From Candidatus Hadarchaeota archaeon (GTDB lineage Archaea; CAYQAE01; CAYVLA01): a stretch of DNA of 19,556 bases. The notes beneath the pieces were generated by a model. The model did no database searches and was not told the origin of the DNA. It saw only the letters and a program-made list of their open reading frames with translations. Positions 1,027-18,543 of the stretch are shown piece after piece. The stretch spans positions 1 through 19,556 of the forward strand of contig CAZUNO010000036.1 of NCBI GenBank assembly GCA_964621445.1. The letters run 5' to 3'. The position numbers and the translations under genes are program-made. Positions within the stretch are counted from its first letter, which is position 1. Every line of letters starts with the position of its first letter.

Positions 1027-2049
1027 CTATTCAGGGCGAGCATCGAAGTAGATGGACCCCTGGTAATCCTGGTCCAGGAACTGGTCCGGTATGGCAACGA
1101 ACACGAAGATCTGAACTTCCCCATGGCCGGAAAGCCCGTCCAGAAACCGCTGATTTTGGGGAGAGAGGATTAGTAGAGGTTTTCCCACCTCCGGGGGGGC
1201 AGTAGATTCATCGTCATCCAGAGTGAAGTCCTCCGGGTTGAGCGTAAAGGAGGGGTTCTCCTTTCCCACGAAGGTCGTTGATCCCACCTCCACCTTGAAA
1301 AGGTGGTTACTTCGGTATGTTAGGACCAGATCGGATCGGGATTCGCCTCCTGGTGCCCCCTCTATGGGCAGGTAGCTGGTGCTTAACCCAAGATATAGGT
1401 ATCGGTTAATTGTGAATCTCCGGGTTAGATTAGCTTCCTTCTCCTCGTCAGATACGGCAACGAAGACGAACCATTCCGAGGCCCAGGCCGTCCTATTCAC
1501 CCTTCCCCTGAAAAGCCAGTTAGCGTTGGCACCGCTGAGATTTGTCGGGGAGATACAATCCTCTATAAGCAGGTTAACTCCCTGGAATCCCTGGCCCTGG
1601 ACCCATTCAAAGGTGTAGTGGTCCGAGGGCGAATCATCCGCGTCCAGCTCGGATCGTGGCGAGTACATCACGACCTTGATGTTGAGAATATCTTCCGCGG
1701 TATTATTATCCCGGGCCCTTACCTGAATGGAGAATGGAACTCCGGGGTCAATGAACTCGGTCTGGATTCCCTCCTCATCCAGAATCTCCAACCCGTCCAC
1801 ATGGGGACCTGCGTTGAGTATATAGAAGGTAATGGGTATCTCAACCCCACCATCCGCGATGACCTGTATGGCGGAGGCTCCAAGAGCGAGGTAAACGGCC
1901 AATAACAGGAAACATCTCTCGAAGGTTGTTTGCTTCGTAGCTCTTCCTCCGACTTGGTCTTTAAGGTCCGAGGAAGTTCTTACCTTAAGGAAATTCAGCC
2001 CAAGCTTACCCGTGATGGACATTTCACAAACCAGCTGTGAGAATTTCAT
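1027..2049 (-). CDS. Family A secreted protein, copy A1 (two beta-sandwich domains; putative filament/surface subunit)
   Basis: Hydrophobic signal segment then EIPITFYILNAGP. Shares RDNNT..DI, YSP.S, HY.F.W, F.LDDD and IP..F.DQDY.G.I.F with 3037..3969 and 6650..7582. ATGA overlap with the stop of upstream 2046..2813. Confidence 0.85.
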   Translation of the reverse strand: MKFSQLVCEMSITGKLGLNFLKVRTSSDLKDQVGGRATKQTTFERCFLLLAVYLALGASAIQVIADGGVEIPITFYILNAGPHVDGLEILDEEGIQTEFIDPGVPFSIQVRARDNNTAEDILNIKVVMYSPRSELDADDSPSDHYTFEWVQGQGFQGVNLLIEDCISPTNLSGANANWLFRGRVNRTAWASEWFVFVAVSDEEKEANLTRRFTINRYLYLGLSTSYLPIEGAPGGESRSDLVLTYRSNHLFKVEVGSTTFVGKENPSFTLNPEDFTLDDDESTAPPEVGKPLLILSPQNQRFLDGLSGHGEVQIFVFVAIPDQFLDQDYQGSIYFDARPE

Positions 2050-2813
2050 TCCTCTTTTCTCTGGAGCATTTTCCTGAAAGCGAAGAATAGGGGAACGGAG
2101 CAGGCTATCAGTATGGCCGAGCCCACCGCCGGTATCAAACTCTTTCCCTCATTGCGCACGTAAACGGTCACACTGCAATCTTCCATGAAATCGCCATCCC
2201 CAAGTTCAGCCCTTATGGTATGCTCCCCGTTTTTCCACTCGGAGGTGGACCAGGTGAAGGAATCATCGTGTGATACCAGCTCGTCATCCACGAAAATGTT
2301 GATCGGTCCCTGCTCGGAATCCAGGACCTCGACCGCGACATGCACCTCTCCGGAAACCGTTTCCCCGTCCTTGGGGAATACTATACTCAACCTGGGCTGA
2401 TGGACCGGTTTTGTAAAGGTTACATTGAATTCGCGGCTGGCCAGTGGAATTATCTGGGGCCCCTCAACCGAGACCACTACCTTACCAGCGTAGGAACCCT
2501 CGGCCGGGGGGCTTCCATATGTGACCGGTATCTTTCTGTTTTCTCCGGGTTCCAGGCTCCAGAGCTCTTCACGGATGATCACCCAGCGACTGCCCTCACC
2601 CTCTACTCCCACTCGGTATAGACCCGATGAGTTGCCCTCATTGTATACCCTAATATAGGAGGTGATGTTCTCTCCCAGGCTAGCCTTGAATTCCTGCTGG
2701 GGTCCGGATATGGCCAGGCCAGGACTACAAGTAGCCGTTTGTATCATGGCAAAGGAAGCCACCAGAATTAGAATTACACCCGATTTTTCCTTGCTCACGA
2801 AGGTGGGGAACAA
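2046..2813 (-). CDS. Family B membrane-anchored protein, copy B1 (PapD/DUF916/NEW3-like module + Big_7-like Ig domain + C-terminal TM)
   Basis: Signal peptide; GLAISGPQQ...SYIRVYNEG...LEPGE module; Ig domain PRLSIVFPKDGETVSGEV...IFVDDELV...FTWST...NGEHTIRAE; TM LIPAVGSAILIACSVPLFFAF followed by a basic tail. Paralog of 5874..6653. Start is TTG 2813 or GTG 2798. Confidence 0.85.
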   Translation of the reverse strand: MFPTFVSKEKSGVILILVASFAMIQTATCSPGLAISGPQQEFKASLGENITSYIRVYNEGNSSGLYRVGVEGEGSRWVIIREELWSLEPGENRKIPVTYGSPPAEGSYAGKVVVSVEGPQIIPLASREFNVTFTKPVHQPRLSIVFPKDGETVSGEVHVAVEVLDSEQGPINIFVDDELVSHDDSFTWSTSEWKNGEHTIRAELGDGDFMEDCSVTVYVRNEGKSLIPAVGSAILIACSVPLFFAFRKMLQRKEE

Positions 2814-2977
2814 ACGGGGAATGAAAAATGCTAGTTGCCTTGAAGCAATTAGATTCAGATTTTTACAATTACCAGCCTAGGAAGCACGTTAGTATGGGAT
2901 TATCTCAGTGTCAATTTTCTCCATTGTGTAAATTTCAATCAGTATTGCGAACCGTCAAAGAGGAATGTTATGCCTCT

Positions 2978-2992
2978 GCAAAACTTTAAAGG
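2978..2992 (+). promoter_or_regulatory. Putative archaeal BRE + TATA box for the A2-D1-C1 operon
   Basis: GCAAAACTTTAAAGG in the AT-rich divergent intergenic region, upstream of an SD-like GGGAAGGT (3023-3030) and a TTG start at 3037. Confidence 0.5.
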
Positions 2993-3036
2993 CCTTTCGC
3001 CATCTTTTTCTTTACAGAGAAAGGGAAGGTTTCAGA

Positions 3037-3969
3037 TTGTCCGGTCGTAGAATATATTTCCTGGCCCTAACGGCGGTGGTCATGGTGCTATCAATGGCTT
3101 GTTCCAGAATACCCTCCAGCGCCGGCGAGGAGATTCCAGTGGTGGCCTACATCCAAAACGCCGAACCGGAGATCATCTCCACCGGCATGGTCGATGAACA
3201 GGGAAACCCGGAGACATCGGTAGACCCGGCGTCAACCTTCCTTTTGGAGGTCGAGGTCAGGGACAACAACACCATGCTTGACGTGGAGACCATAACCGTG
3301 GTACTCTATTCGCCGGAATCAACGCTGGAGGATCCCGACTCGGAAGTGGATCACTATACCTTCCAGTGGACCTCCGCCGGTTTCTCAAACCCCGGGGGAG
3401 TTGGAGAGATCATGCATTCATCGTGTCAGACCCCATCGGAGATGACCGCGGGAACCGGGATATGGATCATAGCGGCCCGGACCCATCGCCTGGCCAGGGA
3501 GGCCGAGGAATGGACGGTACATGCCACGGTGACCGATGAAGAGAACCAGAGCACGGCCCTATCCACCTTCGATGTTACGGGATTCATATCCCTGAACGTT
3601 GAGGACTCCCAGATCACCTTTTCCGGCTCACCCGGTGATACGGTCCCCGCCGATCAAAACCCAATTCGCATGACCTATACCTCAAATCGTTACTGCAAGA
3701 TCGGCTGTTGGTGCACGGGATTCGTGGGCAGCGAGGTGGATACGGTGGTCATCGACCCGTCGTCCTTTAGCATCGACGACGACCCGTATCATGAGGAGAC
3801 CCAGGAAACCGGCATGTCACCGGTAATTCTATCCGGGAACCGGGTCGAGATTTATTCAGGCCTATCCCCCGGCCAGGAGGACGAAGAGGTATACGTATTC
3901 ATCGACATTCCCCAGGCATTTCTGGATCAGGATTACCTGGGAACCCTTAGTTTTCAGATATACACGTGA
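3037..3969 (+). CDS. Family A secreted protein, copy A2
   Basis: ORF track gives 2965..3969. TTG 3037 is preferred because an SD precedes it, the TATA box lies inside the longer ORF, and the signal peptide follows directly. Motifs EEIPVVAYIQNAEP, RDNNTMLDV, PADQNPI, SFSIDDD, QDYLGTLSF. Confidence 0.85.
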   Translation: MSGRRIYFLALTAVVMVLSMACSRIPSSAGEEIPVVAYIQNAEPEIISTGMVDEQGNPETSVDPASTFLLEVEVRDNNTMLDVETITVVLYSPESTLEDPDSEVDHYTFQWTSAGFSNPGGVGEIMHSSCQTPSEMTAGTGIWIIAARTHRLAREAEEWTVHATVTDEENQSTALSTFDVTGFISLNVEDSQITFSGSPGDTVPADQNPIRMTYTSNRYCKIGCWCTGFVGSEVDTVVIDPSSFSIDDDPYHEETQETGMSPVILSGNRVEIYSGLSPGQEDEEVYVFIDIPQAFLDQDYLGTLSFQIYT

Positions 3970-4919
3970 AGACCATGAAACCAAAAAGAGATTTCATCCG
4001 GAAAGCCGCATTCTCGATATCCATTATTCTCCTCTCCATCTCCCTTGTCTTTGTGGTGGCCTCTGGGATAGGCCTAAGTGGGCCCGAACAGGATTTTCAT
4101 GTCCAGCCCGGAGACGGCCTTTCCTCACATCTGATCGTGTGGAACGAGGGAGGATCCGAGGAGGAATACGAGGCATGGGTGACCGGCGACATCTCCCAGC
4201 TGCTATCGGTTGATCCTATGACCTTCACCTTGTCCCCGGGCCAGGGAGTTACCCTGTCCCTGGAATACTCAGTACAATCAGGGCAAGCCCAGGGTACGTA
4301 CGAGGGACGCCTACAGGTGGCAGTGAAGGGGAACGGAATCTCCCCCTCCATATCTCGTGACCTGGTTCTGGCAGTTACCACCGGGACCACCTCCCGGATG
4401 GACCTCCAGGCAGGCATAAACCTGGTGACCTGGAGGGGGCCCAGCGGGAGTTTTGGCGATCTTATACCCAGCGACTCGGGCCTGTTCAAGATATGGAAGA
4501 GGACCCAGGATGGGAGCTACACCCAGGCCCAGTATTACTCCGAACAGGACCTGTGGTGGAGCACCGATGACGGTTTCACTGGTATCGAGACGGGGGAGGC
4601 CTACTTCTTCGAGACTGACCGGGAATGCACCCTGGACATCGAGGAACTGCCCCCCGCGGATAACATAGGTCTAAACGAGGGGCTGAACCTTGTCGGATGG
4701 AGCCACGACTCCGCCAGCTTTCAGGATGCATTCCCGCAGTCCCCGGACGATAATTACGTGGATAAGATCTGGAGGAAGGAGAGTGACGGGAGCTATTCCT
4801 TCGCCCAGTACTACCAGGAGGAGGACCAGTGGTGGAGTTCAACCCCGGATTTTCAGGGCCTGGAAACCGGAAGGGCATACTTCGTTGAGGCCAACAGGGG
4901 CGTTGAATTGACCCCCTAG
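3966..4919 (+). CDS. Family D secreted protein, copy D1 (PapD/NEW3-like module + two Trp/Tyr-rich G-x-N-L repeats)
   Basis: GTGA overlap with the A2 stop. Signal peptide, then GIGLSGPEQ...IVWNEG...FTLSPGQ module and two ~70 aa repeats. Collinear paralog of 7590..8525. Confidence 0.85.
   Translation: MKTMKPKRDFIRKAAFSISIILLSISLVFVVASGIGLSGPEQDFHVQPGDGLSSHLIVWNEGGSEEEYEAWVTGDISQLLSVDPMTFTLSPGQGVTLSLEYSVQSGQAQGTYEGRLQVAVKGNGISPSISRDLVLAVTTGTTSRMDLQAGINLVTWRGPSGSFGDLIPSDSGLFKIWKRTQDGSYTQAQYYSEQDLWWSTDDGFTGIETGEAYFFETDRECTLDIEELPPADNIGLNEGLNLVGWSHDSASFQDAFPQSPDDNYVDKIWRKESDGSYSFAQYYQEEDQWWSSTPDFQGLETGRAYFVEANRGVELTP
4404..4889 (+). repeat. Two intragenic protein-level tandem repeats in D1 (4404-4613 and 4671-4889)
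   Basis: LQAGINLVTW..KIWKRTQDGSYTQAQYY..WWS..FTGIETGEAYFFE versus LNEGLNLVGW..KIWRKESDGSYSFAQYY..WWS..FQGLETGRAYFVE. Also visible in the DNA: GCCCAGTA(T/C)TAC and GTGGTGGAG each occur twice. Confidence 0.9.
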
Positions 4920-4931
4920 GAGGATGATTGA

Positions 4932-5726
4932 ATGCCGAAACCCCCCGCAATTCTGCTATTCTCATTAACCATTATCGTCCTCCCCGTCTGCCTTGCGGAT
5001 CTCGATGTGAATGCCCTAGCCGGGAGGGTAGTCATCGGCAAGGAGCCAGCTCCCGCTGGAACCCAGATCAGGATAATTAATGCAGAGACCGGATTTTCCC
5101 TTACCACCAAGGTCGATGGACCGAATATTCCACCCTTCGCCAGATCCGAGGGAAGATATGAAACGGGAGATATGCCCGAGATGAGTACCGGGGATACGGT
5201 CATGGTCTCCGTCGACGGGTACAACTGGAACACTGAGATAAGTCTGGAGGCCGGAACAACCGAAGCGTACCTGGTAATAGTAACATTTCAGAATATCGAG
5301 GAAGACCATCAACCATATCGGCTTGAGGGCGCCGCCACAATAGGAGGGATATCCGGATTAGATTTGCCCGGAGCGGGAATCCTCTCGTCACCGCTTCCGG
5401 TGGACATATCTGCCAGACTGGGAAATTTGGGATCGTTGACTCTGGATTCAATTGGAGACCTATCCAATCGAGCACAACAAAGAATTGACAAAGTGAGGGA
5501 TGAGGTTCAGGACATCGCCGGCATCCTATCAATAATCTCCAGTAAAATCCGAGATATCATTCGAAGGTTGCCCCTAACCATTGCACTTACCCTTCTAGCC
5601 CCGCCCTCCTTTGCAGGTATGGTCTTCGTAATCTATCGGTATCGACGACCTGACACCCGTGTTACCAAGGAGGAGGTCAAGAGCGATGCCAGGGAAACCG
5701 ATGTTTTCTGGGACCCAGTGGGATGA
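4932..5726 (+). CDS. Family C membrane-anchored protein, short copy C1 (carboxypeptidase-regulatory/transthyretin-like tip domain, short helical linker, C-terminal TM)
   Basis: Strong SD GGAGGATGA upstream. Signal peptide ending CLA-D; domain DLDVNALAGRV..EPAPAGT..GRYETGD..TGDTV.VSV shared with 8488..10548; TM LPLTIALTLLAPPSFAGMVFVIY followed by RYRR. Confidence 0.85.
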   Translation: MPKPPAILLFSLTIIVLPVCLADLDVNALAGRVVIGKEPAPAGTQIRIINAETGFSLTTKVDGPNIPPFARSEGRYETGDMPEMSTGDTVMVSVDGYNWNTEISLEAGTTEAYLVIVTFQNIEEDHQPYRLEGAATIGGISGLDLPGAGILSSPLPVDISARLGNLGSLTLDSIGDLSNRAQQRIDKVRDEVQDIAGILSIISSKIRDIIRRLPLTIALTLLAPPSFAGMVFVIYRYRRPDTRVTKEEVKSDARETDVFWDPVG

Positions 5727-5873: not shown

Positions 5874-6653
5874 ATGCCCCTAAGGCCGATCGCATTCATA
5901 GTGACAGCTATTCTTCTACTGTCACCTACTATGGCAAAAAGAGGGGTAGGTGTCTCCGGCCCGGACCAGGTCTTCTCCCTCACCCCCGGTAGCAATCTGA
6001 GTTCCTACCTAAGGGTCTACAACACCGGTGATGAGGTAACCACATACTCGGTTAAGGTTGAGGGTAACGTCTCCCGTTTCCTATCTCCGGAAAGCGATAG
6101 TATCGTGATAGATCCAGGGGAAAACCAGAAGCTTGAACTCACCTATAGGACCAAACATGACGACCTACCGGGAGAATACACCGGATCCTTCCTGGTTTCC
6201 ATCGGAGGCCAGCAGGTATCCCCCGGCGTGAGCAAGAGGGTAAGGATAATCATCGCTGGTACGGCCCCCAACCGACCGCCAAAGATAGCATTTCTGAGCC
6301 CGACTCAGGGCAAAGTTTCCGGTGAGGTCGATATCAGAGTCAATGCCTCCGATCCCGACGGAGACAGGCTGACAATCCATATATTCGTAGATGGCGATAT
6401 GGTCTCCGAATCTGAGATCTTCGTATGGGATACCACCCAGGTGGAGGAGGGCACTCACAACCTAACGGCCACCGCGAGCGATGGGGAGGACTTGGAGAGG
6501 GCGGAGCTATCGGTTGTGGTAGATAACGTCGAGCAAAATCGTGATTGGCTTTGGATCGTAACCTCGCTGGGTCTCTTCGTTATTTTCCTTATCCTGGCCG
6601 CTGCCAGGGGAGCTTCACACCAGAATGATGCCCGGAGGGAGAATACGGATTGA
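5874..6653 (+). CDS. Family B membrane-anchored protein, copy B2
   Basis: ORF track gives 5835..6653; ATG 5874 directly precedes the signal peptide. GVGVSGPDQ...SYLRVYNTG...IDPGENQ module; Ig domain NRPPKIAFLSP..VSGEV...DPDGD...IFVDG...WDTT...GTHNLTATASDG; C-terminal TM WLWIVTSLGLFVIFLILAAA. Confidence 0.85.
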   Translation: MPLRPIAFIVTAILLLSPTMAKRGVGVSGPDQVFSLTPGSNLSSYLRVYNTGDEVTTYSVKVEGNVSRFLSPESDSIVIDPGENQKLELTYRTKHDDLPGEYTGSFLVSIGGQQVSPGVSKRVRIIIAGTAPNRPPKIAFLSPTQGKVSGEVDIRVNASDPDGDRLTIHIFVDGDMVSESEIFVWDTTQVEEGTHNLTATASDGEDLERAELSVVVDNVEQNRDWLWIVTSLGLFVIFLILAAARGASHQNDARRENTD

Positions 6654-7582
6654 AAATTGGTAGATCATCCGGCCCAGGAGCCTTCATGGTCCTTCTCATT
6701 TCATTACTAATCATCCTTGGAGGAATACCAGCGACATCCTCGGAGGAGATTCCAATAGTGGTTAACATTCTAAATGCGGCCCCTGAGTTAGTTGATCTAT
6801 CGATATCGATAATGGGATCCGAATACGGTTCGGTTGATCCCGGGATGCAGTTTTCGGTAAACGTGACTGCGAGGGACAACAACACGGTAGCCGATATCGA
6901 TGAGATCGATCTAGTACTCTATTCACCATTCTCAACCGAATGGGGGAACCCCGATCCCGCTAATCATTACGCTTTCCGGTGGCGGGCGGGAAATGGATTT
7001 ACCAACCCCGGTGGCACTGGAGAGATATTTGGTGGCATCTCAAGCGAACCCTCTTCACTAGCTTCGGGAATGGGTAGCTGGATTTTCTCGGTCAAGATGG
7101 ACAAGTCCGCTATTCATTCCGACCAATGGACCCTGTCGGCCAGGATCAGTGATGACGAGGATGAGGGCAGTGGGACCGGAGAGTTCACGGTCAACAAATA
7201 CAGCTCGCTATACATTGATACCTCCGAGATCTCCTTCTCCGGCGTTCCGGGAAGCACGTCACCGGCTGATCAGAACCCCATATCGATCCGTTATAGCTCA
7301 AATTATGAACTTGATCTCGCCTGCTGGGCCACGGACTTCGTTGGCCGGGAGAGGCCAGAGGTGACCATAGGCCCAGCCTCCTTCATAGTGGACGACGATG
7401 ATAGCTTAGAGCCGCCGGAACAGGGAGCGAATTCACTCGAGCTTTCGGGGTCCCGGAAGACATTCCTTGGTGGCCGATCCCCGGCACAGGACTCCGGGAT
7501 GAATGTCCACCTGTTCATCCGTATTCCCGATTCCTTCTACGACCAGGAGTACGATGGACACATATTTTTTGATTTAAGGTGA
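6650..7582 (+). CDS. Family A secreted protein, copy A3
   Basis: TTGA overlap with the B2 stop. Signal peptide; EEIPIVVNILNAAP, RDNNTVADI, PADQNPI, SFIVDDDD, QEYDGHIFF. Confidence 0.85.
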   Translation: MKIGRSSGPGAFMVLLISLLIILGGIPATSSEEIPIVVNILNAAPELVDLSISIMGSEYGSVDPGMQFSVNVTARDNNTVADIDEIDLVLYSPFSTEWGNPDPANHYAFRWRAGNGFTNPGGTGEIFGGISSEPSSLASGMGSWIFSVKMDKSAIHSDQWTLSARISDDEDEGSGTGEFTVNKYSSLYIDTSEISFSGVPGSTSPADQNPISIRYSSNYELDLACWATDFVGRERPEVTIGPASFIVDDDDSLEPPEQGANSLELSGSRKTFLGGRSPAQDSGMNVHLFIRIPDSFYDQEYDGHIFFDLR

Positions 7583-7589
7583 CCAATAG

Positions 7590-8525
7590 ATGCAATATAC
7601 CCGTGGCATAGCACTAGTCCTCTCCTTTCTGGCAGCTCTTCTAGTTATAGTTTCAATATCAGGTGGCGGGGTGGGCCTTAGCGGTCCGGAACAGACACAT
7701 GAGATTCCTTTAGGAGGGAGCGTTAGCTCCTACCTGAGAGTGTGGAACGAGGGTTCCTCGGAAGGGAAATTCGCAGTTCAGGTTCTGGGTGAGGTGGAAT
7801 CCATGGTTGATCCGGATCCCATCTCCTTCACCCTTGGTCCTGGGGAGCAGAGAACCATCTCCCTAATCTACAGCGTTCCGGGAGATATGGAACCGGGGTC
7901 CTACTCGGGGATCATAACAGCCAGATTCCAGGGTGACATCTCGAGCCAGGTTTCCCGAGATATCGAGGTGGCCGTGAAGGGCCAGGTCCAGGATGGAGGC
8001 CAACTATCCCTCAGGAAGGGGTTGAATCTAATCGGGTGGTTTGGTGAAAATCTAAGCTTTTCGGAGGCCCTGGACGGGGTTGATGGACCCAAGAAGATCT
8101 GGCGTAGAAAACCTGATGGTTCATATACCTCGGCGGAGTATTACCCATCGGTGGGGGTTTGGTGGAGTTCCGATTCCCAGTTTACCGGACTGAAAAACGG
8201 AAAGGCCTACTTCGTGGAATGCGAAAAGGCCTGCACGATTAATTTGAACGAAATGACCGACTCGGGCCCCACCAAACTCGAGAAGGGGACCAACCTCATA
8301 GTCTGGAAATGGGGGGATGCCGCTATTTCAGAGGCCTTCCCCCAGGAGCCCAGTCAATATGAGATCACCAAGATCTGGAGAAGCGGGGTCGACGGAGAGT
8401 ACGAGTTCACTCAGTACTACCCATCTGCTGACTTATGGTGGAGCGAGACATCTTCATTTACAGAATTAGAGAGAGGGAAAGCATATTTTGTCGAAGTACT
8501 TGCTGAAATGTGGATTAACGGATAG
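7590..8525 (+). CDS. Family D secreted protein, copy D2
   Basis: SD AGGTGA overlaps the A3 stop, 7 nt before the ATG. GVGLSGPEQ...SYLRVWNEG...FTLGPGEQ module plus two Trp/Tyr-rich repeats. Confidence 0.85.
   Translation: MQYTRGIALVLSFLAALLVIVSISGGGVGLSGPEQTHEIPLGGSVSSYLRVWNEGSSEGKFAVQVLGEVESMVDPDPISFTLGPGEQRTISLIYSVPGDMEPGSYSGIITARFQGDISSQVSRDIEVAVKGQVQDGGQLSLRKGLNLIGWFGENLSFSEALDGVDGPKKIWRRKPDGSYTSAEYYPSVGVWWSSDSQFTGLKNGKAYFVECEKACTINLNEMTDSGPTKLEKGTNLIVWKWGDAAISEAFPQEPSQYEITKIWRSGVDGEYEFTQYYPSADLWWSETSSFTELERGKAYFVEVLAEMWING
8010..8495 (+). repeat. Two intragenic protein-level tandem repeats in D2 (8010-8219 and 8277-8495)
   Basis: LRKGLNLIGW..KIWRRKPDGSYTSAEYYPS..WWS..FTGLKNGKAYFVE versus LEKGTNLIVW..KIWRSGVDGEYEFTQYYPS..WWS..FTELERGKAYFVE. 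Confidence 0.9.
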
Positions 8526-10548
8526 AGCTTCGCTAGGCGCTCGAACGAGCCTGATCGTCCTAGCCATATTGCTAACGGCCGCCGGCGTTCATGCGGACCT
8601 GGACATAAACGCAGTGGCCGGGGTAGTTGAGATAGATGGCGAACCGGCCTCCGCGGGCACCTCAATAATGGTCAGGGATCTGAACACCGGGGCAACCGCG
8701 ACCACCCCGGTGGATGGCTCTAGCATTCCCTCCTTTCTCAAGGGCCAGGGTCGATACGACACCGGCGACGTTCCAGGCTTCAACACCGGTGACACCGTGG
8801 TGGTCTCGGTTAGCGAAACCGGAATAAAGGGAGAGGCCTCAGCCGTCCTGGTCGCCGGAACCACGACCATAAATCTAGAGGCTCGTCGTGAGCGATCCCC
8901 CAGCATAGGGAATATCCCCGATCAGGAGGGATTTGAGGATGTCGCCTGGGAGCTTGACCTCGATCCCTACATCTCGGACCCGGACACCCCCAAGAGCAAG
9001 CTAGATGTCGGGGTTCAATCCGGATATACGGAGGTAAAGGGGCATGTGATCACCTTTCTCTACCCCGAGGGCGTTCTCTCCGAGACGGTTAGGGTCTACG
9101 TTCGCGATGGCTCCTCGACGGTCTCCAGGAGAATTCAGGTTACGGTTAACCCCGTAAACGACCCGCCCCGGCTAGCGGAGATATCAAATATCACGATCAT
9201 GGAGGGTACCAATGCATCATTGAACCTGTCAGGCCACGTTCAGGATCCTGATGACCAACTCGAGGATTTCTGCTGGGGAGTTGATGAGGGAGATCTGGTC
9301 ACCGCCTGGATGGAAGGCCCGGTCCTGACCGTCGTTGCCCCGGATAGCGATTACGGACACGATTCATTCCAGATCTGGGTTTTGGATTCGGGCAACCTCT
9401 CGGCTAGCCAGTTGGTATCTGTCGAGGTCGAGGCAAACGTAACCGCCCTGAAGGAGGCATATGAAGGACAGATCGAATCCCTCAGGGCAGAGATCGAGAA
9501 TCTGGAGGCCAATAACACAAACCTGGCCTCCGAGATCGATTCCCTGTGGAGAGAGCTCAATACCCTGGAGATAAGAAAAACGGAGCTCCAAACACAGCTG
9601 AAGGAAAAGGAGGACCTGGTTTCCACCTTTCAGGAACGGATTAGACGGGTGGAAAGCTCGGACGATGAGAAGGCGGCCCTGATTATGGAACTGGAACATC
9701 AAAGGGATAATCTCACGGCGGAAATAGATGACCTAAACAAGGAATTGGATGAGGTCCAATCAGCTCATAACCAGACCAGGAAGGAGCTCGAATCGACTAA
9801 ATCGGAGTCGCAAACCAGAATCCAAAACCTGGCCCTCATCTTGCTCCAGACCCGGGAACTTCTTTCCCAATCCAGGGAGAATATCACCGCACTGGTTCAA
9901 ATGGTGGCAGATCTTAGCGATAAACTCGATGCCAAGAGAGCTCAACTCGGTTCGGCAAATCTTGGTATCGAAAATCTGGAGGCGGTAATCGAAGCCCTCC
10001 GGGAGAATAACCGGCTATTGAAGGAGGAAAATCTGCAGATGGAGGCGAGTATCAGCCAATCATCCGAGGATATCATATCCCTGGAGCTGAAAAACATGCG
10101 ACAGCTCGCAGAAATCGAGCGTCTAAGAAGCATAATGGCCACCCGAGAGATTAATTCCTCCCAGGTAAACCCGCCCCTTGCCCGTATGTTCTCGAAGGCA
10201 GCAGATTTTGTGAAATCAGGAAACGAGGCCATAAATGACGGATTGAGAAATGAACTTCTATTGGCGATCATTCTCCTAGTTGCTGCGGCATCAACCATTA
10301 CCATAGTTATGAGAACATCCTGGATGAAGATGGTAGACGAAGACGGTTTTGATAGGATTCTCCGGATTATGGGAAGGGCAATTAGGGTTCTGGGCCGGCT
10401 TAGCACTAGAATCAAGAAAAAGCAACGCTCTGAAAGGGAGTTGAGCGAGACCGACCGTCAATATATATGGGGCCTCCGCAGACTAGGCTTCGATAAGGAG
10501 GCCGATGAATACCTGGATAGTCTACCCACAGAGGAGGAAGAGCCCTAG
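8488..10548 (+). CDS. Family C membrane-anchored protein, long copy C2 (tip domain + two cadherin-like Ig domains + long coiled coil + TM + cytoplasmic tail)
   Basis: Signal peptide ending VHA-D; tip domain homologous to C1; cadherin-like motifs ED..LDL..YISDPD, VTVNPVNDPP, DPDD; heptad-rich region at about 9445-10137; TM LLLAIILLVAAASTITIVM (10255-10311). Start is TTG 8488 or 8500. Confidence 0.88.
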   Translation: MSKYLLKCGLTDRASLGARTSLIVLAILLTAAGVHADLDINAVAGVVEIDGEPASAGTSIMVRDLNTGATATTPVDGSSIPSFLKGQGRYDTGDVPGFNTGDTVVVSVSETGIKGEASAVLVAGTTTINLEARRERSPSIGNIPDQEGFEDVAWELDLDPYISDPDTPKSKLDVGVQSGYTEVKGHVITFLYPEGVLSETVRVYVRDGSSTVSRRIQVTVNPVNDPPRLAEISNITIMEGTNASLNLSGHVQDPDDQLEDFCWGVDEGDLVTAWMEGPVLTVVAPDSDYGHDSFQIWVLDSGNLSASQLVSVEVEANVTALKEAYEGQIESLRAEIENLEANNTNLASEIDSLWRELNTLEIRKTELQTQLKEKEDLVSTFQERIRRVESSDDEKAALIMELEHQRDNLTAEIDDLNKELDEVQSAHNQTRKELESTKSESQTRIQNLALILLQTRELLSQSRENITALVQMVADLSDKLDAKRAQLGSANLGIENLEAVIEALRENNRLLKEENLQMEASISQSSEDIISLELKNMRQLAEIERLRSIMATREINSSQVNPPLARMFSKAADFVKSGNEAINDGLRNELLLAIILLVAAASTITIVMRTSWMKMVDEDGFDRILRIMGRAIRVLGRLSTRIKKKQRSERELSETDRQYIWGLRRLGFDKEADEYLDSLPTEEEEP

Positions 10549-11431: not shown

Positions 11432-13336
11432 TCATTTATCGCGTAAGTCTATCTTAACTTCATGCCTGCCCTGGTTCAGTCCGATCAGGAGATATCTTCG
11501 ACCATGAACCAGGACCTCCCGCTTTCTGGAACTTGTCTCTCCATTGACATAAACCGAAGGATCCCCAGATTCACTGGAGAGATGAAGCATTATCGCCGAG
11601 TTATTTACAGGGGATTCGCAGGAGAATGAGAGGCCTTCACCGTCCATTTGTAGGCCGCTAACATTGATCCTTCCCCTGGATTTCCACCAAAGGACGAACT
11701 CCGATAATGTGAATAGAGCATGGTTGTGCTTCCTAGCCAGCTCATCAAATACCAGCCAGTCCCTTCTGGAAGGTTGTCCTTCAACCAGATCACATGGATG
11801 GTAAAGAGCGTTGATAACCTGGTGATAGCAGTTCCTACTGTTCTCCAACAGCTCATCAATGTAGATCTGATTTATGCCTGAATATTGGGCCTGTATCTGG
11901 AATGGAAGTTCATATAGGGAAAATGGCTCCCCGTTGGTATCTAATGGATGAAAGGGCAGCCCAGTACCGTACATGTATCCCTTTCCGGTTCTCCCCGCGG
12001 ACCCTAGGGATGAATCCAAGGCTATAGACTGCGCCTCCATTATTCGAAAGGGCCTGGTGTAATGATTTCCCCAGCGTAATCTCTCGATCCTGCAAAGGGA
12101 TACACCCCCCGGGTCCGATAACTTATCTTCCAGGACCTCAATTTGATCCTCCAGACTACCTTCTCCTCTTCGAAAGACCATTAGCCATCGGTGGACCTCC
12201 CGATTCCAGTGTATGTGAATATCTCCCCCGAGGTTATTCATCCTCTCCAGCCCTTCGTCCGTTACCGGACCCTTGGAAATAATGAAGAACGTGGAGTTGT
12301 AGTCGGATTTTCTCTCCTCCTCCAAAACGAAGCAGGACTCGTCACCAAACCAATCCTCGTCATGGGTCATGGTAACTACACCATCATGCTGGAAGGGAAA
12401 GTACCAGGGTCTTGGCATTGGCCTGATTTCCTCGACAAGTGATATTATCCACCTTTCCAGGAGATCGGCATAGGGTATGTCGGATACCATGTGTTCGGTG
12501 GATGCCAACAGGTCGGTGGAGTCAACGATTCCCTCCGACCCCCTCTTGTCAACTACGCGAAAGCCGTCATCCGGAATGCCCTGCTGAAGTACCGTGAGTT
12601 CACGCCCAACGTCGAAGGCGAAGGAGATGACGCCACCTTTTCCCATCTCCCTTAGGAATACTACCGGTTCCCCGTCCATGCTCATCTTGATCACGGTACC
12701 CTCAACTGGACTGATGCTCTGGCAGTTTGTGTACAGGGGTATATCCCCAATCCTTTCAAGCCCATCATTTTCCGCCCCGGATATTTCATTCGGAATCCAG
12801 GTCGGATCGTCAAGCTTTTCCAGCCCCCCAAGTTCCAGTAATTTCCCCGCCGGAAACTCGACTATCAGGACCCCCCCGGCCTCAACCCAGGTTCTAAGAG
12901 CCGATATATCATATTTATCCCCGGCACCAGCTCCGGTTATCACCACCAGACTTATATTTTCAAGGAATTCCGGCCCGATCATTTCGGGGGAAGCTATGGA
13001 CAGGCCACCGGTCTCCTGTTCAAGCAGGTTTGCCCACTGGTAGCACCAGTCCGTTGACTCAAAGTCTGTACCATCCATGCGGGACCCGATAACTAGGACC
13101 GTTGGCTTGAAATTGCCCTCGAGAAATGATCCGTTGCCCTTTAATTGGGCATTAATTGCCGGGATTTTTACCGGGTAAAGCGAAAGAAGGTTGCCAACGA
13201 CCAATAGGCAAAGCAGGGCTACCAGGCCTGCCCCCTTGCGTCCCTTACGCTGGGGGTAGCGAGTATAGATCAGGAATACGATGACTAATACCAAGGAGGG
13301 AAGGGTTATCTGAGCGATGGTTCGCATTACCGACAT
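11432..13336 (-). CDS. Membrane-anchored multidomain polysaccharide deacetylase-like protein (class I glutamine-amidotransferase-like domain + NodB/CE4-like barrel + C-terminal beta domain)
   Basis: Two N-terminal hydrophobic helices; LRTWVEAGGVLIV and GKGGVISF (GATase-like trimerisation-type domain); PWYFP...VTMTHDED, STFFI, IHIHW, LDSS, GTGLPF, YELP, ALYHP (deacetylase barrel). Confidence 0.7.
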   Translation of the reverse strand: MSVMRTIAQITLPSLVLVIVFLIYTRYPQRKGRKGAGLVALLCLLVVGNLLSLYPVKIPAINAQLKGNGSFLEGNFKPTVLVIGSRMDGTDFESTDWCYQWANLLEQETGGLSIASPEMIGPEFLENISLVVITGAGAGDKYDISALRTWVEAGGVLIVEFPAGKLLELGGLEKLDDPTWIPNEISGAENDGLERIGDIPLYTNCQSISPVEGTVIKMSMDGEPVVFLREMGKGGVISFAFDVGRELTVLQQGIPDDGFRVVDKRGSEGIVDSTDLLASTEHMVSDIPYADLLERWIISLVEEIRPMPRPWYFPFQHDGVVTMTHDEDWFGDESCFVLEEERKSDYNSTFFIISKGPVTDEGLERMNNLGGDIHIHWNREVHRWLMVFRRGEGSLEDQIEVLEDKLSDPGGVSLCRIERLRWGNHYTRPFRIMEAQSIALDSSLGSAGRTGKGYMYGTGLPFHPLDTNGEPFSLYELPFQIQAQYSGINQIYIDELLENSRNCYHQVINALYHPCDLVEGQPSRRDWLVFDELARKHNHALFTLSEFVLWWKSRGRINVSGLQMDGEGLSFSCESPVNNSAIMLHLSSESGDPSVYVNGETSSRKREVLVHGRRYLLIGLNQGRHEVKIDLRDK

Positions 13337-16576: not shown

Positions 16577-16680
16577 GACACTATTATTGAGGGAGATCAG
16601 ATATGTCTTCCCCGGTTCCATGGCCTGACGTAGGGATCCATTCAATTGGTTTTCATGAAACGCATTTCTTCTACCAGGCA

Positions 16681-16719
16681 GCCGACATATATTGCTCGGC
16701 ATTAAATTGGTTGAGGGAT
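16681..16719 (+). promoter_or_regulatory. Putative TATA box within an inverted repeat, plus SD, for 16720..18543
   Basis: GCCGA-CATATATTGC-TCGGC (16681-16700), followed by GAGGGA immediately before ATG 16720. Confidence 0.35.
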
Positions 16720-18543
16720 ATGCAATTTTCCGGTATTCGCCATATGCGAGCTCGCTTCATGCAGATTACCATCATTCTACTTGCGACCATCCTAATACTG
16801 CTTCTAGTTATCCTCGTTTTCGCCCAGATAAGGAAATACCCGGTCCAGATTCCCGAGGCAGACGAGAAGTTATCAGGAAGATCGCTTGATGAACGGGTTA
16901 GTATCTGCCAATATCTGGGAGGAAAAGACGCCGCCGTCTGCTGCTCATTCGATTCCCTGGTATGGCGCGACCCAGATGCCGGTGATGACTGGGCATACAC
17001 AAACCGTACCCATTCCCTTCTTTCAAAGGTCTTTGATATCCATGATATACATCCCCAGTTCCGGACATCTGCAACCTTCGTGGCCCGGAACAGGTATGGA
17101 CTGGATAAGAACGGGGATGCCAGGTGGGACCCAGGTGTGGATCACGATAATTACCGCGATGTCGACGTAAGATATGCCCCGGGTCACGTTCGTGACTGGA
17201 TCATCGAGGTTGAGTCCTTGGGATGGATCGATATCGAGGATCACGGCTTGACCCATTCCCCTGATGGGGCAAGGAACCTGGATTTTGGGGAGTTCGATCC
17301 CTATAGAAATCCAAACGCCACCGACATAGAGTGGTGTCGAGATCAGGTGAAATTGATCCGCTCCATATTCAGCGAGATAGGCCTGGATAATTCCGAGATT
17401 ACGGGGTTCAGGGGTCCCTGTAACAGGTGGACGGATCCACTGATCGATGCCCTTGTCGAAAACAACTTCGATTATCTGATGATCAAGGGCGGGCGGCACT
17501 ATCTACATCGCCATTTGAGAAGGGGAGGAACCAGCTACTATGAGCATTTCACCGTTTTCCCGGAGATCTATGAGACGGAGAGAGGAACGAGAATACTGAC
17601 CTTGCCCTCCAACGCCCATCCCCACGATCCCGATTATGAAAGGTACTACGAATATGCGATACGTTCAGGCGGCATAATTTCATTCTTTTTTCACCCCGAG
17701 GAGTTGTTCCACCGGGAGACATTCGATGCATTCGACGAACGTCTTCGACATCTCGAGAGTTATGACCAGGATGATTCCGATGGAGTAATCGGTGACCAAC
17801 TATGGTGGTGTACTGCAAGGGAGCTGGCGGATTACGTGAATCTACGGAGGAAAACCATGGTAACCGGCGTTGAAACCCGGGAGAAAGCCCTGAAAATCGA
17901 GCTCACAAACGACGGAAACAAGACCGGTGAGATCTCCCTGGCCATCAACCCGGGAGGTGATCTTATTGAGGCGGACATCTCCTGCCAGGAGCCGGCGAGA
18001 TTGACCTGGACACCTGATGGACTGCTGATCCTAACCACAAATCTAACTCCTGGGAATAAAGTCCTTAATTTGGTGTCCGATAAATCCCTTATTCTCCAGG
18101 ATATCTCTAGCCGCGTGGACGAGGGCCGGTCAAGTGAAATAATCGAACAGTGGTTGACGGAAGGCCGGCAAATAAGGGCTTCAAATAACCTTTTGCTTTC
18201 CTCATCAATCGGGCTTCAGTTTGTGGGGGCATCTATGGTGCTGGGTTTTCTCAAGTGGAGGGGGCTCAAAACCTCCCTGTTAATCTTGCTTCTATCGCTT
18301 GTAATCGGGCTCATGCTTCTTGCCGGTTGGTCCCTCATAGAGAAGCTTATGTGGGTGACCTACGAATACACGGGGGTTGGCCCCGTCCAGAAATATGCTA
18401 CCTATGGCCTTAATCTCGCCACGACCACGGATATGAAGACGGGATTTTCGCTGCCCCTAGCCTTTATTATTGCCTTTCCAGGATTTTTTGTGTTCTTGGC
18501 TTACCTGGTAGGTAACTTTTTAGGGAGATCAAGAGCAAAATAA
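16720..18543 (+). CDS. Membrane-anchored polysaccharide deacetylase (NodB/CE4-like) with C-terminal beta domain and about three C-terminal TM helices
   Basis: N-terminal TM; CCSFDS, ATFV, EDHGLTH (HxxxH), GFRGP, FDY, FFFHP, LWW.T..ELADY; hydrophobic helices near the C-terminus. ORF track start 16603; ATG 16720 with SD preferred. Confidence 0.8.
   Translation: MQFSGIRHMRARFMQITIILLATILILLLVILVFAQIRKYPVQIPEADEKLSGRSLDERVSICQYLGGKDAAVCCSFDSLVWRDPDAGDDWAYTNRTHSLLSKVFDIHDIHPQFRTSATFVARNRYGLDKNGDARWDPGVDHDNYRDVDVRYAPGHVRDWIIEVESLGWIDIEDHGLTHSPDGARNLDFGEFDPYRNPNATDIEWCRDQVKLIRSIFSEIGLDNSEITGFRGPCNRWTDPLIDALVENNFDYLMIKGGRHYLHRHLRRGGTSYYEHFTVFPEIYETERGTRILTLPSNAHPHDPDYERYYEYAIRSGGIISFFFHPEELFHRETFDAFDERLRHLESYDQDDSDGVIGDQLWWCTARELADYVNLRRKTMVTGVETREKALKIELTNDGNKTGEISLAINPGGDLIEADISCQEPARLTWTPDGLLILTTNLTPGNKVLNLVSDKSLILQDISSRVDEGRSSEIIEQWLTEGRQIRASNNLLLSSSIGLQFVGASMVLGFLKWRGLKTSLLILLLSLVIGLMLLAGWSLIEKLMWVTYEYTGVGPVQKYATYGLNLATTTDMKTGFSLPLAFIIAFPGFFVFLAYLVGNFLGRSRAK

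Follow-up and report, generated by a model that had tools for sequence, protein, structure and literature searches.

Family A, a group of secreted archaeal proteins with a conserved strand near the mature N-terminus, may assemble into surface fibers by strand donation. Three members, A1, A2, and A3, are encoded in the window analyzed here: a 19,556-nt (19.6-kb) stretch of DNA, contig CAZUNO010000036.1, from the Candidatus Hadarchaeota archaeon assembly GCA_964621445.1. The favored reading, with a probability of roughly 0.4, is that family A proteins are Sec-secreted acidic subunits joined in trans by strand donation into a surface fiber. Specifically, the N-terminal amphipathic strand of one A protein would be donated to a β-sandwich of another subunit, most likely the second domain (D2) of the next A, and donation into D2 would yield a head-to-tail fiber of two-domain subunits.

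Strand-donation fibers were long held to be a Gram-negative speciality. In the past four years, they have appeared in Sulfolobus (threads), in Pyrobaculum, Pyrodictium, and haloarchaea (bundling pili and cannulae), in bacteria of the Candidate Phyla Radiation (CPR; the Pam pili), and in enterococci (the WxL system).

The three genes, and the features of A2 on which the argument turns, are as follows (window positions; aa, amino acids):

1027-2049, minus strand: A1 paralogue, 340 aa; strand EIPITFYILNA at 1810-1842
2965-3969, plus strand: A2, 334 aa; the end coordinate includes the stop
2965-3126, plus strand: A2 leader, a Sec-type signal peptide with h-region YFLALTAVVMVLSMA; cleavage predicted from the sequence near the SSA/GEE junction
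3130-3162, plus strand: A2 candidate donor strand EIPVVAYIQNA; conserved, amphipathic, no β partner in the AlphaFold2 monomer
3157-3168, plus strand: A2 N-A-E-P linker motif; N65 and P68 invariant in 16/16 aligned sequences
3169-3576, plus strand: A2 domain 1 (D1, mature residues 15-150); β-sandwich with nine β segments and the motif (V/A)RDNNT..D(I/V); 95-98 by residue block in predicted local distance difference test (pLDDT)
3580-3966, plus strand: A2 domain 2 (D2, mature residues 152-280); second β-sandwich with nine β segments (DSSP); candidate acceptor domain
3907-3954, plus strand: A2 C-terminal motif IPQAFLDQDYLGTLSF; conserved, only 4 residues after it
3157-3159 (N65), 3262-3264 (D100), 3280-3282 (D106), and 3535-3537 (D191), plus strand: codons of the A2 co-varying cluster
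6650-7582, plus strand: A3 paralogue, 310 aa; strand EIPIVVNILNA at 6746-6778

A conserved strand behind the signal peptide

A1 and A3 are 33% and 40% identical to A2, respectively (full-length alignment of the three translated open reading frames, ORFs), and all three follow a common plan: a signal peptide; the sequence EIPxxxxIxNAxP; and an end 3-5 residues past IP..F.DQ.Y.G...F. A first-pass annotation of the DNA had placed a β-type strand at the start of each mature chain, and its three strands are exact: EIPVVAYIQNA occupies A2 residues 56-66, EIPITFYILNA reads from 1842 to 1810 on the minus strand in A1, and EIPIVVNILNA lies as listed in A3. The abrupt ends that it described are there as well (IPQAFLDQDYLGTLSF plus QIYT in A2; IPDQFLDQDYQGSIYF plus DARPE in A1; IPDSFYDQEYDGHIFF plus DLR in A3), none of the three proteins has a hydrophobic C-terminal membrane anchor, and the pattern quoted for the C-terminal ~130 residues (..FSG.PG...Y.SN..) is present in the alignments.

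In A1, A2, and A3, the strand comes directly after a hydrophobic, signal-peptide-like stretch; predicted −3/−1 cleavage sites, judged by eye, likely fall 1-9 residues ahead of EIP. The A2 ORF as listed opens with about 25 residues (2965-3040; MLCLCKTLKAFRHLFLYREREGFR) before a normal n-region. If translation instead began at the TTG codon of L25, which precedes the h-region, the signal peptide would be a conventional one (MSGRRIYFLAL...); the real start is uncertain.

Conservation was evaluated in two alignments, one of 16 sequences from close subfamilies and one of 49 sequences representing the wide family. In mature numbering, I3 and P4 are present in 15 of the 16 close sequences, and N11 and P14 in all of them; the linker asparagine and proline persist in 43 and 48, respectively, of the 49. 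By information content, mature residues 3-14 (the strand plus its NxxP linker) fall at the 98.1st percentile among the 12-residue windows of the 16-sequence alignment and at the 96.3rd percentile in the wide one. Such conservation indicates a pattern beyond chance. Odd positions of the strand are hydrophobic or small (I at 3; I/V/G at 5; A/F at 7; V/I at 9), and even positions are mostly polar (P/S/T; S/T/V/N; T/Y; G/L/S). This alternation forms an amphipathic β pattern, as of a strand with one buried face. The strand that the annotation placed at the start of the mature chain is real: it is conserved, amphipathic, and at or close to that end.

The predicted A2 structure

AlphaFold2, given mature A2 with the 49-sequence alignment, returned a confident model (m7e10f3e65f67; mean pLDDT 96.6, predicted template modeling score 0.87) with two β-sandwich domains, in agreement with the annotation's extra immunoglobulin (Ig) domain per subunit. 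Mature residues 1-14 (EEIPVVAYIQNAEP) have neither a strand nor a bridge assigned; the model thus does not build the candidate donor strand into its own first domain. The N-terminal block has a pLDDT of ~81, compared with 95-98 for nearly all other 10-residue blocks (lowest 90). The annotation had named just such a monomer model as its check, with an N-terminal strand integral to the first domain as the first half of the outcome that would tell against it; in the model, the strand is unpaired.

An earlier model, built from the three-paralogue alignment with the signal peptide kept (pLDDT 64.6, poor C-terminal domain, generic Foldseek matches), is superseded. Prediction of two mature A2 copies with the 49-row alignment gave an ipSAE interface score of 0.00 in both runs; no control pairs were folded, and the result speaks neither for nor against binding.

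Foldseek ranked fusions of the pilus proteins CfaB-CfaB and CfaE-CfaB first among PDB structures (E values 7.5e-07 to 3.6e-06; template modeling (TM) scores 0.39-0.44). Both are donor-strand-complemented, which favors the fiber. Within one to two orders of magnitude stand streptococcal AgI/II C-domains, FimH, integrins, single-chain variable fragments, and MSCRAMM N2N3. The Cfa matches are suggestive of a pilin-type Ig fold in the A2 model but do not discriminate.

A module that closes proteins

Family A is real, mainly archaeal, and without a Pfam or NCBIfam model. For A1-A3, Pfam yields no family at E≤0.1, and NCBIfam at the same threshold yields nothing but one meaningless match in the A3 signal peptide. 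Across the 49 aligned members, Pfam detects no pilin, WxL, or SCPU (spore-coat-U) family at E≤0.01, and only three unrelated single-member matches.

Nonetheless, relatives are numerous. When 1.84 billion cluster representatives (50% clustering) were searched with a profile built from A1-A3, at least 336 relatives reached E≤1e-3, 114 reached E≤1e-10, and 25 reached E≤1e-30; near end-to-end matches make up 52 of the best 150. A word-indexed homologue search with A2 alone recovered only A2 itself (1 of 1873 candidates), and the same type of search with an alignment recovered 33 proteins among 8000 scored candidates, none informatively named. Two relatives called "hypothetical protein" come from metagenome-assembled genomes (MAGs), one of Methanophagales and one of Dehalococcoidia, and the nearest ESM-Atlas clusters are unnamed and mostly archaeal. 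A related-loci search with the 16-row alignment gave 13 matching stretches, from which three loci were confirmed: L001 and L002, in Hadarchaeota MAGs; and L003, in an "uncultured Thermococci" MAG. In the literature that could be searched, no account of family A was found, and none that joins Hadarchaeota with a donor strand.

Separate hidden Markov models (HMMs) for D1 and D2, run over 178 family proteins, delineated these architectures:

D1-D2: 143 proteins
D1 only: 24 proteins
D2 only: 6 proteins
D1-D1-D2: 3 proteins
D1-D1: 1 protein
D1-D2-D1-D2: 1 protein (P0141)

The last of these, P0141 (609 aa), is a single-chain "dimer" of the module, whose tandem copies are joined by a T/P-rich linker and then a strand-like AMSLAVS-DDPT. 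D1 and D2 themselves show no detectable internal duplication when compared by hhalign (probability 0.6%). Applied to all six-frame ORFs of the window and the three related loci, the two HMMs revealed no additional family A members. In L002, the A homologue is directly followed by a 179-aa ORF (3084-3623) whose product has a hydrophobic segment at its N-terminus and contains VHILNLPPEV, a sequence that resembles the strand-NxxP junction; neither HMM recognizes it (E>0.01).

Two positional rules emerge. First, D2 ends no more than 20 residues from the protein C-terminus in 148 of 149 cases. Second, in the stand-alone proteins (n=100), the module starts no more than 90 residues from the N-terminus, and the NxxP is preceded by a signal peptide, 5-10 residues, and then [ST]-G-[ST]-h-x-h-x-N. 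A strand that is conserved, amphipathic, and placed right after the signal peptide of 100 stand-alone proteins with an N-terminal module argues for the fiber.

At least 19 fusions carry a complete module that closes a larger protein. Pfam domains ahead of the module were identified in 21 of 30 large members scanned: Laminin_G_3 in 6; DUF2341 in 5; FG-GAP in 3; Beta_helix in 2; CBM96 in 2; plus GH92/GH130 and cohesin. In fusions, the residues before NxxP either repeat this motif, set off by a short linker, or form the final strand of whichever domain comes before; the internal strand motif is kept in a subset of the 19 listed fusions (for example, P0046, P0047, P0064, P0073, P0089, P0113, P0127, and P0163).

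Comparison with known strand-donating systems

In the Elr/WxL pilus of Enterococcus faecalis, polymerization proceeds by chaperone-guided donor-strand exchange between subunits whose Ig domain is incomplete and whose N-terminal donor strand is 15 residues long (10.64898/2026.10.17.759780). The C-terminal strand of that Ig domain is gripped by a membrane-anchored chaperone, and a free C-terminal strand likewise serves as the chaperone grip in chaperone-usher and WxL pilins (10.64898/2026.10.17.759780). The WxL adhesins consist of a variable payload and a C-terminal WxL attachment module (10.64898/2026.10.17.759780).

Family A shares several features of that system: a subunit secreted through Sec, in which an amphipathic N-terminal strand (about 15 residues) precedes a protein-ending Ig-like domain; loci with several pilin paralogues; a neighboring membrane protein that combines Ig-like domains with a transmembrane helix at the C-terminus (ElrE, compared with the B1 and B3 proteins described below); and a payload (lectin, β-helix, or Ig) followed by the same module as the most C-terminal domain. 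By analogy only, a base with a donor strand and a C-terminal anchor (ElrB) might have its counterpart in the C proteins. Two of these likenesses favor the fiber. The terminal position of D2 recalls the free C-terminal strand that chaperones grip in the Elr preprint, and D1-D2 as the last domain behind payloads recalls WxL tip adhesins. By the same analogy, the large members with lectin, β-helix, propeller, or glycosidase payloads would be adhesin or enzyme-bearing subunits.

There are differences as well. The WxL-type layout is found at the level of sequence only, as an amphipathic mature N-terminal strand together with a most C-terminal candidate acceptor domain. No WxL domain (PF13731) was detected in A1-A3 (Pfam, E≤0.1) or in any of the 49 members (0/49, E≤0.01). 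DUF916 and DUF3324, which within 10 kb define the WxL operon (10.64898/2026.10.17.759780), have no match in family A, and no such chaperone gene occurs among the 17 window ORFs; B1 and B3 match its general build only. A has two sandwiches rather than one, the candidate anchor is a coiled-coil transmembrane protein rather than an LPxTG/sortase substrate, and the host is an archaeon.

The Pam pili of CPR bacteria are built from two-domain pilins that are handled by two-domain chaperones with a C-terminal transmembrane helix; they are reported as exclusive to CPR (PMC13278184). Like PamA and PamB, as reported there, A has two-domain subunits, with a nine-strand β-sandwich and an Ig-like C-terminal domain. 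Donor-strand exchange (proposed for A), two-domain chaperones that keep a C-terminal transmembrane helix (B1 and B3 being the candidates here), and a monoderm-type envelope with no usher complete the resemblance. Compared by architecture alone, the strand is placed differently: the reported donor or "linker" strand of Pam lies between the two domains, and the candidate strand of A lies before both. The combination of strand and terminal Ig-like domain in A matches that reported for proven donor-strand-exchange fibers (Elr/WxL and Pam).

The class 5 pilus proteins CfaB and CfaE of CFA/I (PDB 3f84, 3f85, 3f83) align with the A2 model over 317-341 columns. In these engineered tandem pilins, the strand that follows each Ig fold completes it; if the mapping is right, both A domains would already be "self-complemented". 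Identity is only 11-13%, with a root-mean-square deviation of 8-9 Å, and A differs further in having no usher or PapD-type chaperone gene and no periplasm. No usher or PapD_N match occurs among the 17 window ORFs, and neither A1-A3 nor the 49 members belong to an SCPU or fimbrial Pfam family.

Archaeal precedents are closer in setting. Saci_0406, the subunit of Sulfolobus threads, is a Sec-secreted archaeal protein that polymerizes through an N-terminal strand (PMC9715654). AbpX fibrils form in a chaperone-free, Ca2+-dependent manner, and the AbpX N-terminal extension is unstructured in monomer predictions (10.64898/2026.01.04.697558). The unpaired residues 1-14 of an otherwise confident A2 monomer thus resemble the extension of a known donor-strand polymer, and support the fiber. 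In the properties reported for threads, the bundling pili of the TasA superfamily (AbpA/TafE/AbpX), and Pyrodictium cannulae, these systems and A have much in common: archaeal hosts; Sec dependence; a strand right after signal-peptide cleavage; and no type IV machinery. They also share acidic subunits (pI near 4 and about 16% Asp+Glu in A), with a possible Ca2+ dependence. Mature A proteins have a pI of 4.05-4.30 and an Asp+Glu content of 16-17.5%, an acidity like that of AbpX-type matrix proteins, which again favors the fiber. In contrast, the archaeal subunits described are single jelly-roll or β-sandwich units. Saci_0406 and the TasA superfamily are both missing from the 50 best Foldseek matches and from the results of searching PDB sequences with A profiles; A1-A3 and the 49 members have no Peptidase_M73/TasA match in Pfam; and no dedicated signal peptidase I gene, often a neighbor of TasA-type genes, was found among the window ORFs by Pfam.

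Since comparison by sequence, and in part by fold, places A in none of the WxL, chaperone-usher/SCPU, TasA, or thread groups, the appropriate statement is that it may work like a donor-strand-exchange pilus, not that it is a WxL or Csu pilin. The resemblance to WxL and CsuA/B is one of layout, and homology is not supported by sequence.

Candidate partner genes B and C

The first 10.5 kb of the window encodes three paralogous families (A, B, and C) of secreted or membrane proteins. The B and C genes are:

2046-2813, minus strand: B1; signal peptide, CARDB-like Ig, Big_7 Ig, C-terminal transmembrane helix
3966-4919, plus strand: B2; GTG start, signal peptide, Ig domain, two ~70-aa KIWR..WWS..AYFVE repeats, no transmembrane helix
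5835-6653, plus strand: B3; same build as B1 (Ig, Big_7, C-terminal transmembrane helix)
7590-8525, plus strand: B4; same build as B2
4932-5726, plus strand: C1; short C2 paralogue with conserved N-terminal domain and transmembrane helix, no cadherin-like region, no coiled coil
8488-10548, plus strand: C2; signal peptide, N-terminal domain (ADLDINAVAG...), cadherin-like/Big_9 region, ~250-aa coiled coil, transmembrane helix near the C-terminus, cytoplasmic tail

Every A gene in the window adjoins a B gene. Stop and start codons overlap at 2046-2049 (B1 stop, A1 start), 3966-3969 (A2 stop, B2 start), and 6650-6653 (B3, A3 start), and the A3-B4 gap is 7 nt; A is translationally coupled to B. Cassette order varies by copy: B1-A1 on the minus strand; A2-B2-C1; and B3-A3-B4-C2. 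Such variation points to an A-B(-C) unit that was duplicated and rearranged locally. The related locus L001 keeps the A-B-C order, with a B protein 37% identical to B4 and a C protein 33% identical to C2. Three A paralogues in one locus, overlapping A and B genes, and an A-B-C order kept in another Hadarchaeota MAG are together consistent with components of one fiber system.

A CARDB-like Ig domain is common to all four B proteins, as are a signal peptide at the N-terminus and the conserved mature start G(I/V)G(L/V)SGP(E/D)Q. B1 and B3, with a signal peptide, two Ig-like domains, and a C-terminal transmembrane helix, have the build reported for PamC/PamD and ElrE, which is a further point in favor of the fiber. 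By analogy with Elr/WxL and Pam, B1 and B3 might act as membrane-anchored chaperones or primers; B1 is the candidate membrane-anchored partner or chaperone. Only below threshold does B3 match HYDIN/VesB-like Ig (E=8e-4; 20 bits, where the cut-off is 25.5 bits) and ASH (E=0.093), families that presumably belong to the PapD-like clan. A PDB sequence search with a B profile returned chance-level matches only.

B2 (4380-4916) and B4 (7995-8522) end in two tandem repeats of about 70 residues, LNLVGW...KIWR..DGSY..YY....WWS....F.GLE.G.AYFVE. The repeats correspond to no Pfam or NCBIfam family, and are kept at 37-40% identity in the L001 homologue (3788-4717).

The mature C1 and C2 chains open with a conserved ADLD(V/I)NA(L/V)AG. 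With this conserved N-terminus, a coiled-coil stalk, and a membrane helix, C proteins could by the same analogy form the cell-proximal base; C2 is the candidate base or anchor. C2 also matches the NCBIfam S-layer SlaB model far below threshold (E=0.0015; 17.5 bits against a 700-bit cut-off), within coiled-coil sequence.

These elements admit a broader proposal, tentative and more doubtful than not: family A would represent an undescribed, mainly archaeal class of donor-strand-exchange system, with B proteins as membrane-anchored Ig chaperones, the coiled-coil transmembrane protein C as base where other systems use a sortase or usher, and many subunits that bear lectin, β-helix, propeller, or glycoside hydrolase domains on the common C-terminal module. 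What the analysis establishes is the family, its fold, the unpaired and conserved strand, the terminal D2, the payload fusions, and the A-B-C cassette; donation in trans, polymerization, and the parts played by B and C are inferred.

Evidence against strand donation, and other explanations

Several results weigh against the fiber. D2 carries its own confidently placed C-terminal strand (mature 274-279); with nine β segments in addition, its sandwich may be complete with no strand missing. (In a bolder variant of strand donation, this extreme C-terminal strand would act as a built-in "self-chaperone" displaced by the incoming strand.) The internal position of the strand in several fusions, behind a linker or a domain, also fits a strand that serves its own module in cis. 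The TM scores of the Foldseek matches are low (0.39-0.44, at 8-9 Å), and many unrelated tandem-Ig proteins score nearly as well; PDB sequence searches with A profiles detected no similarity to solved pilins, only chance matches (E=2.3). Finally, in L002 and L003 the A homologues, which are more distant, have glycosyltransferase genes around them and no B or C within ~6-7 kb. With B and C absent near A in two of the three fetched loci, they are not universal partners.

Covariation is a weak lead at best. Mean-field direct coupling analysis was run on 99 full-length rows (a 122-row set was dominated by gap artefacts), and recovered plausible D1 ladders at z scores of 4.0-4.5. The best diagonals of the strand fall in D2, at 171-178 and 204-211, each reciprocally best (z 3.6-3.8), and the strand also pairs antiparallel to D2 268-275 (z 3.1-3.3). 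Across all 8-residue windows, the best diagonal has a median z of 3.66, and pairs above the 97th percentile number 41/1125 between the N-terminus and D2, compared with 29/1179 for D1. The strand-to-D2 signal is not above background, and so this too counts against donation into D2.

The same analysis identified a co-varying, nearly invariant cluster: N65, D100, D106, and D191 (mature N11, D46, D52, and D137), of which D46 belongs to the DNNT motif of D1. Their covariation suggests a metal site; a predicted site, perhaps for Ca2+, is possible at the N-terminal pole of D1, beside the strand exit.

This cluster bears on the first alternative, that family A is a non-polymerizing surface or secreted module in which D1-D2 serves for C-terminal attachment or for glycan or envelope binding, free-standing in the window and joined to enzymes and lectins in other proteins, with the strand acting as a cis edge or latch strand or as part of a Ca2+ site. 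Such a module is possible, if rather unlikely. It accommodates a D2 that looks complete by DSSP, a strand motif kept internally in some of the 19 fusions, the covariation of N11 with D46, D52, and D137 at the D1 pole, and neighborhoods rich in glycan-synthesis genes (GT4, nucleotide-sugar enzymes, PIG-L deacetylase); moreover, the strand pLDDT of ~81 is moderate, not disordered. Yet AlphaFold2 finds no cis β partner for the strand, though the alignment is deep enough to fix the rest of the protein. A cis role also leaves two features unexplained: the position of the strand right after the signal peptide in 100 stand-alone proteins; and three anchorless paralogues beside anchored B and C.

A hetero-complex is unlikely. 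Here, the strand would tether anchorless A to B1/B3 or to C, and the product would be a canopy, S-layer-like or stalked, in which C supplies a SlaB-like coiled-coil stalk and A and B the outer Ig subunits. The A-B translational coupling, the A-B-C cassette kept at 33-37% identity, the C2 architecture (a ~250-aa coiled coil, a transmembrane helix near the C-terminus, and the sub-threshold SlaB match), and the lack of an own anchor in A, B2, and B4 are all in keeping with such a canopy. However, the SlaB match is far under its cut-off and confined to coiled-coil sequence, A homologues occur apart from B and C in L002 and L003, and payload fusions suit a fiber or an attachment module better than a lattice.

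It is very improbable that family A comprises archaeal sheath (SH) proteins, which form hoops round Methanothrix, Methanospirillum, and ANME-1 cells. SH proteins share with A a signal peptide, a length of 150-350 aa, several copies per genome, Methanophagales relatives, and Ig-like extensions on some members, as reported (PMC11576556); the amyloid-like core with optional caps described there (PMC11576556) differs from the two ordinary β-sandwiches of A2, a distinction drawn by description alone.

Least credible of all is true homology to WxL pilins or to CsuA/B and spore-coat-U (SCPU) pilins, a kinship to which the first-pass annotation had pointed: the chaperone-usher class 5 pilins at the top of the Foldseek ranking and an ESM-Atlas feature match to a WxL cluster (0.77, the sole WxL trace, below 0.8 and in a class flagged as often due to chance) are set against the absence of WxL, SCPU, fimbrial, PapD, or usher Pfam matches in A1-A3 and the 17 window ORFs (E≤0.1) and in all 49 members (0/49, E≤0.01), and against a WxL system reported in Bacillota only by the Elr preprint (10.64898/2026.10.17.759780), compared with a mainly archaeal family A.

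Other features of the window

GC content across the window is ~0.47-0.57. Pfam assigns the remaining ORFs to a PIG-L deacetylase, a nucleotidyl transferase, a UDP-glucose/GDP-mannose dehydrogenase, an NAD-dependent epimerase/dehydratase, and a GT4 glycosyltransferase. Among these nucleotide-sugar and glycosyltransferase genes lie two large ORFs of 634 and 646 aa (11432-13336, minus strand; 16603-18543, plus strand); their products have membrane segments at the N- or C-terminus, and neither matches a Pfam family (E≤0.1).

Implications

If strand donation is correct, family A would add a further, sequence-unrelated lineage of strand-donating fibers in uncultivated archaea (such as Hadarchaeota, Methanophagales, and DPANN-type groups), with its own solution to anchoring. 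Enzyme- and lectin-bearing subunits would then give a way into the question of how such organisms adhere to partners or polymers. Even without a polymer, the results define a surface module that is new, C-terminal, and built of two domains, along with a conserved gene cassette, A-B-C, that deserves definition as a family.

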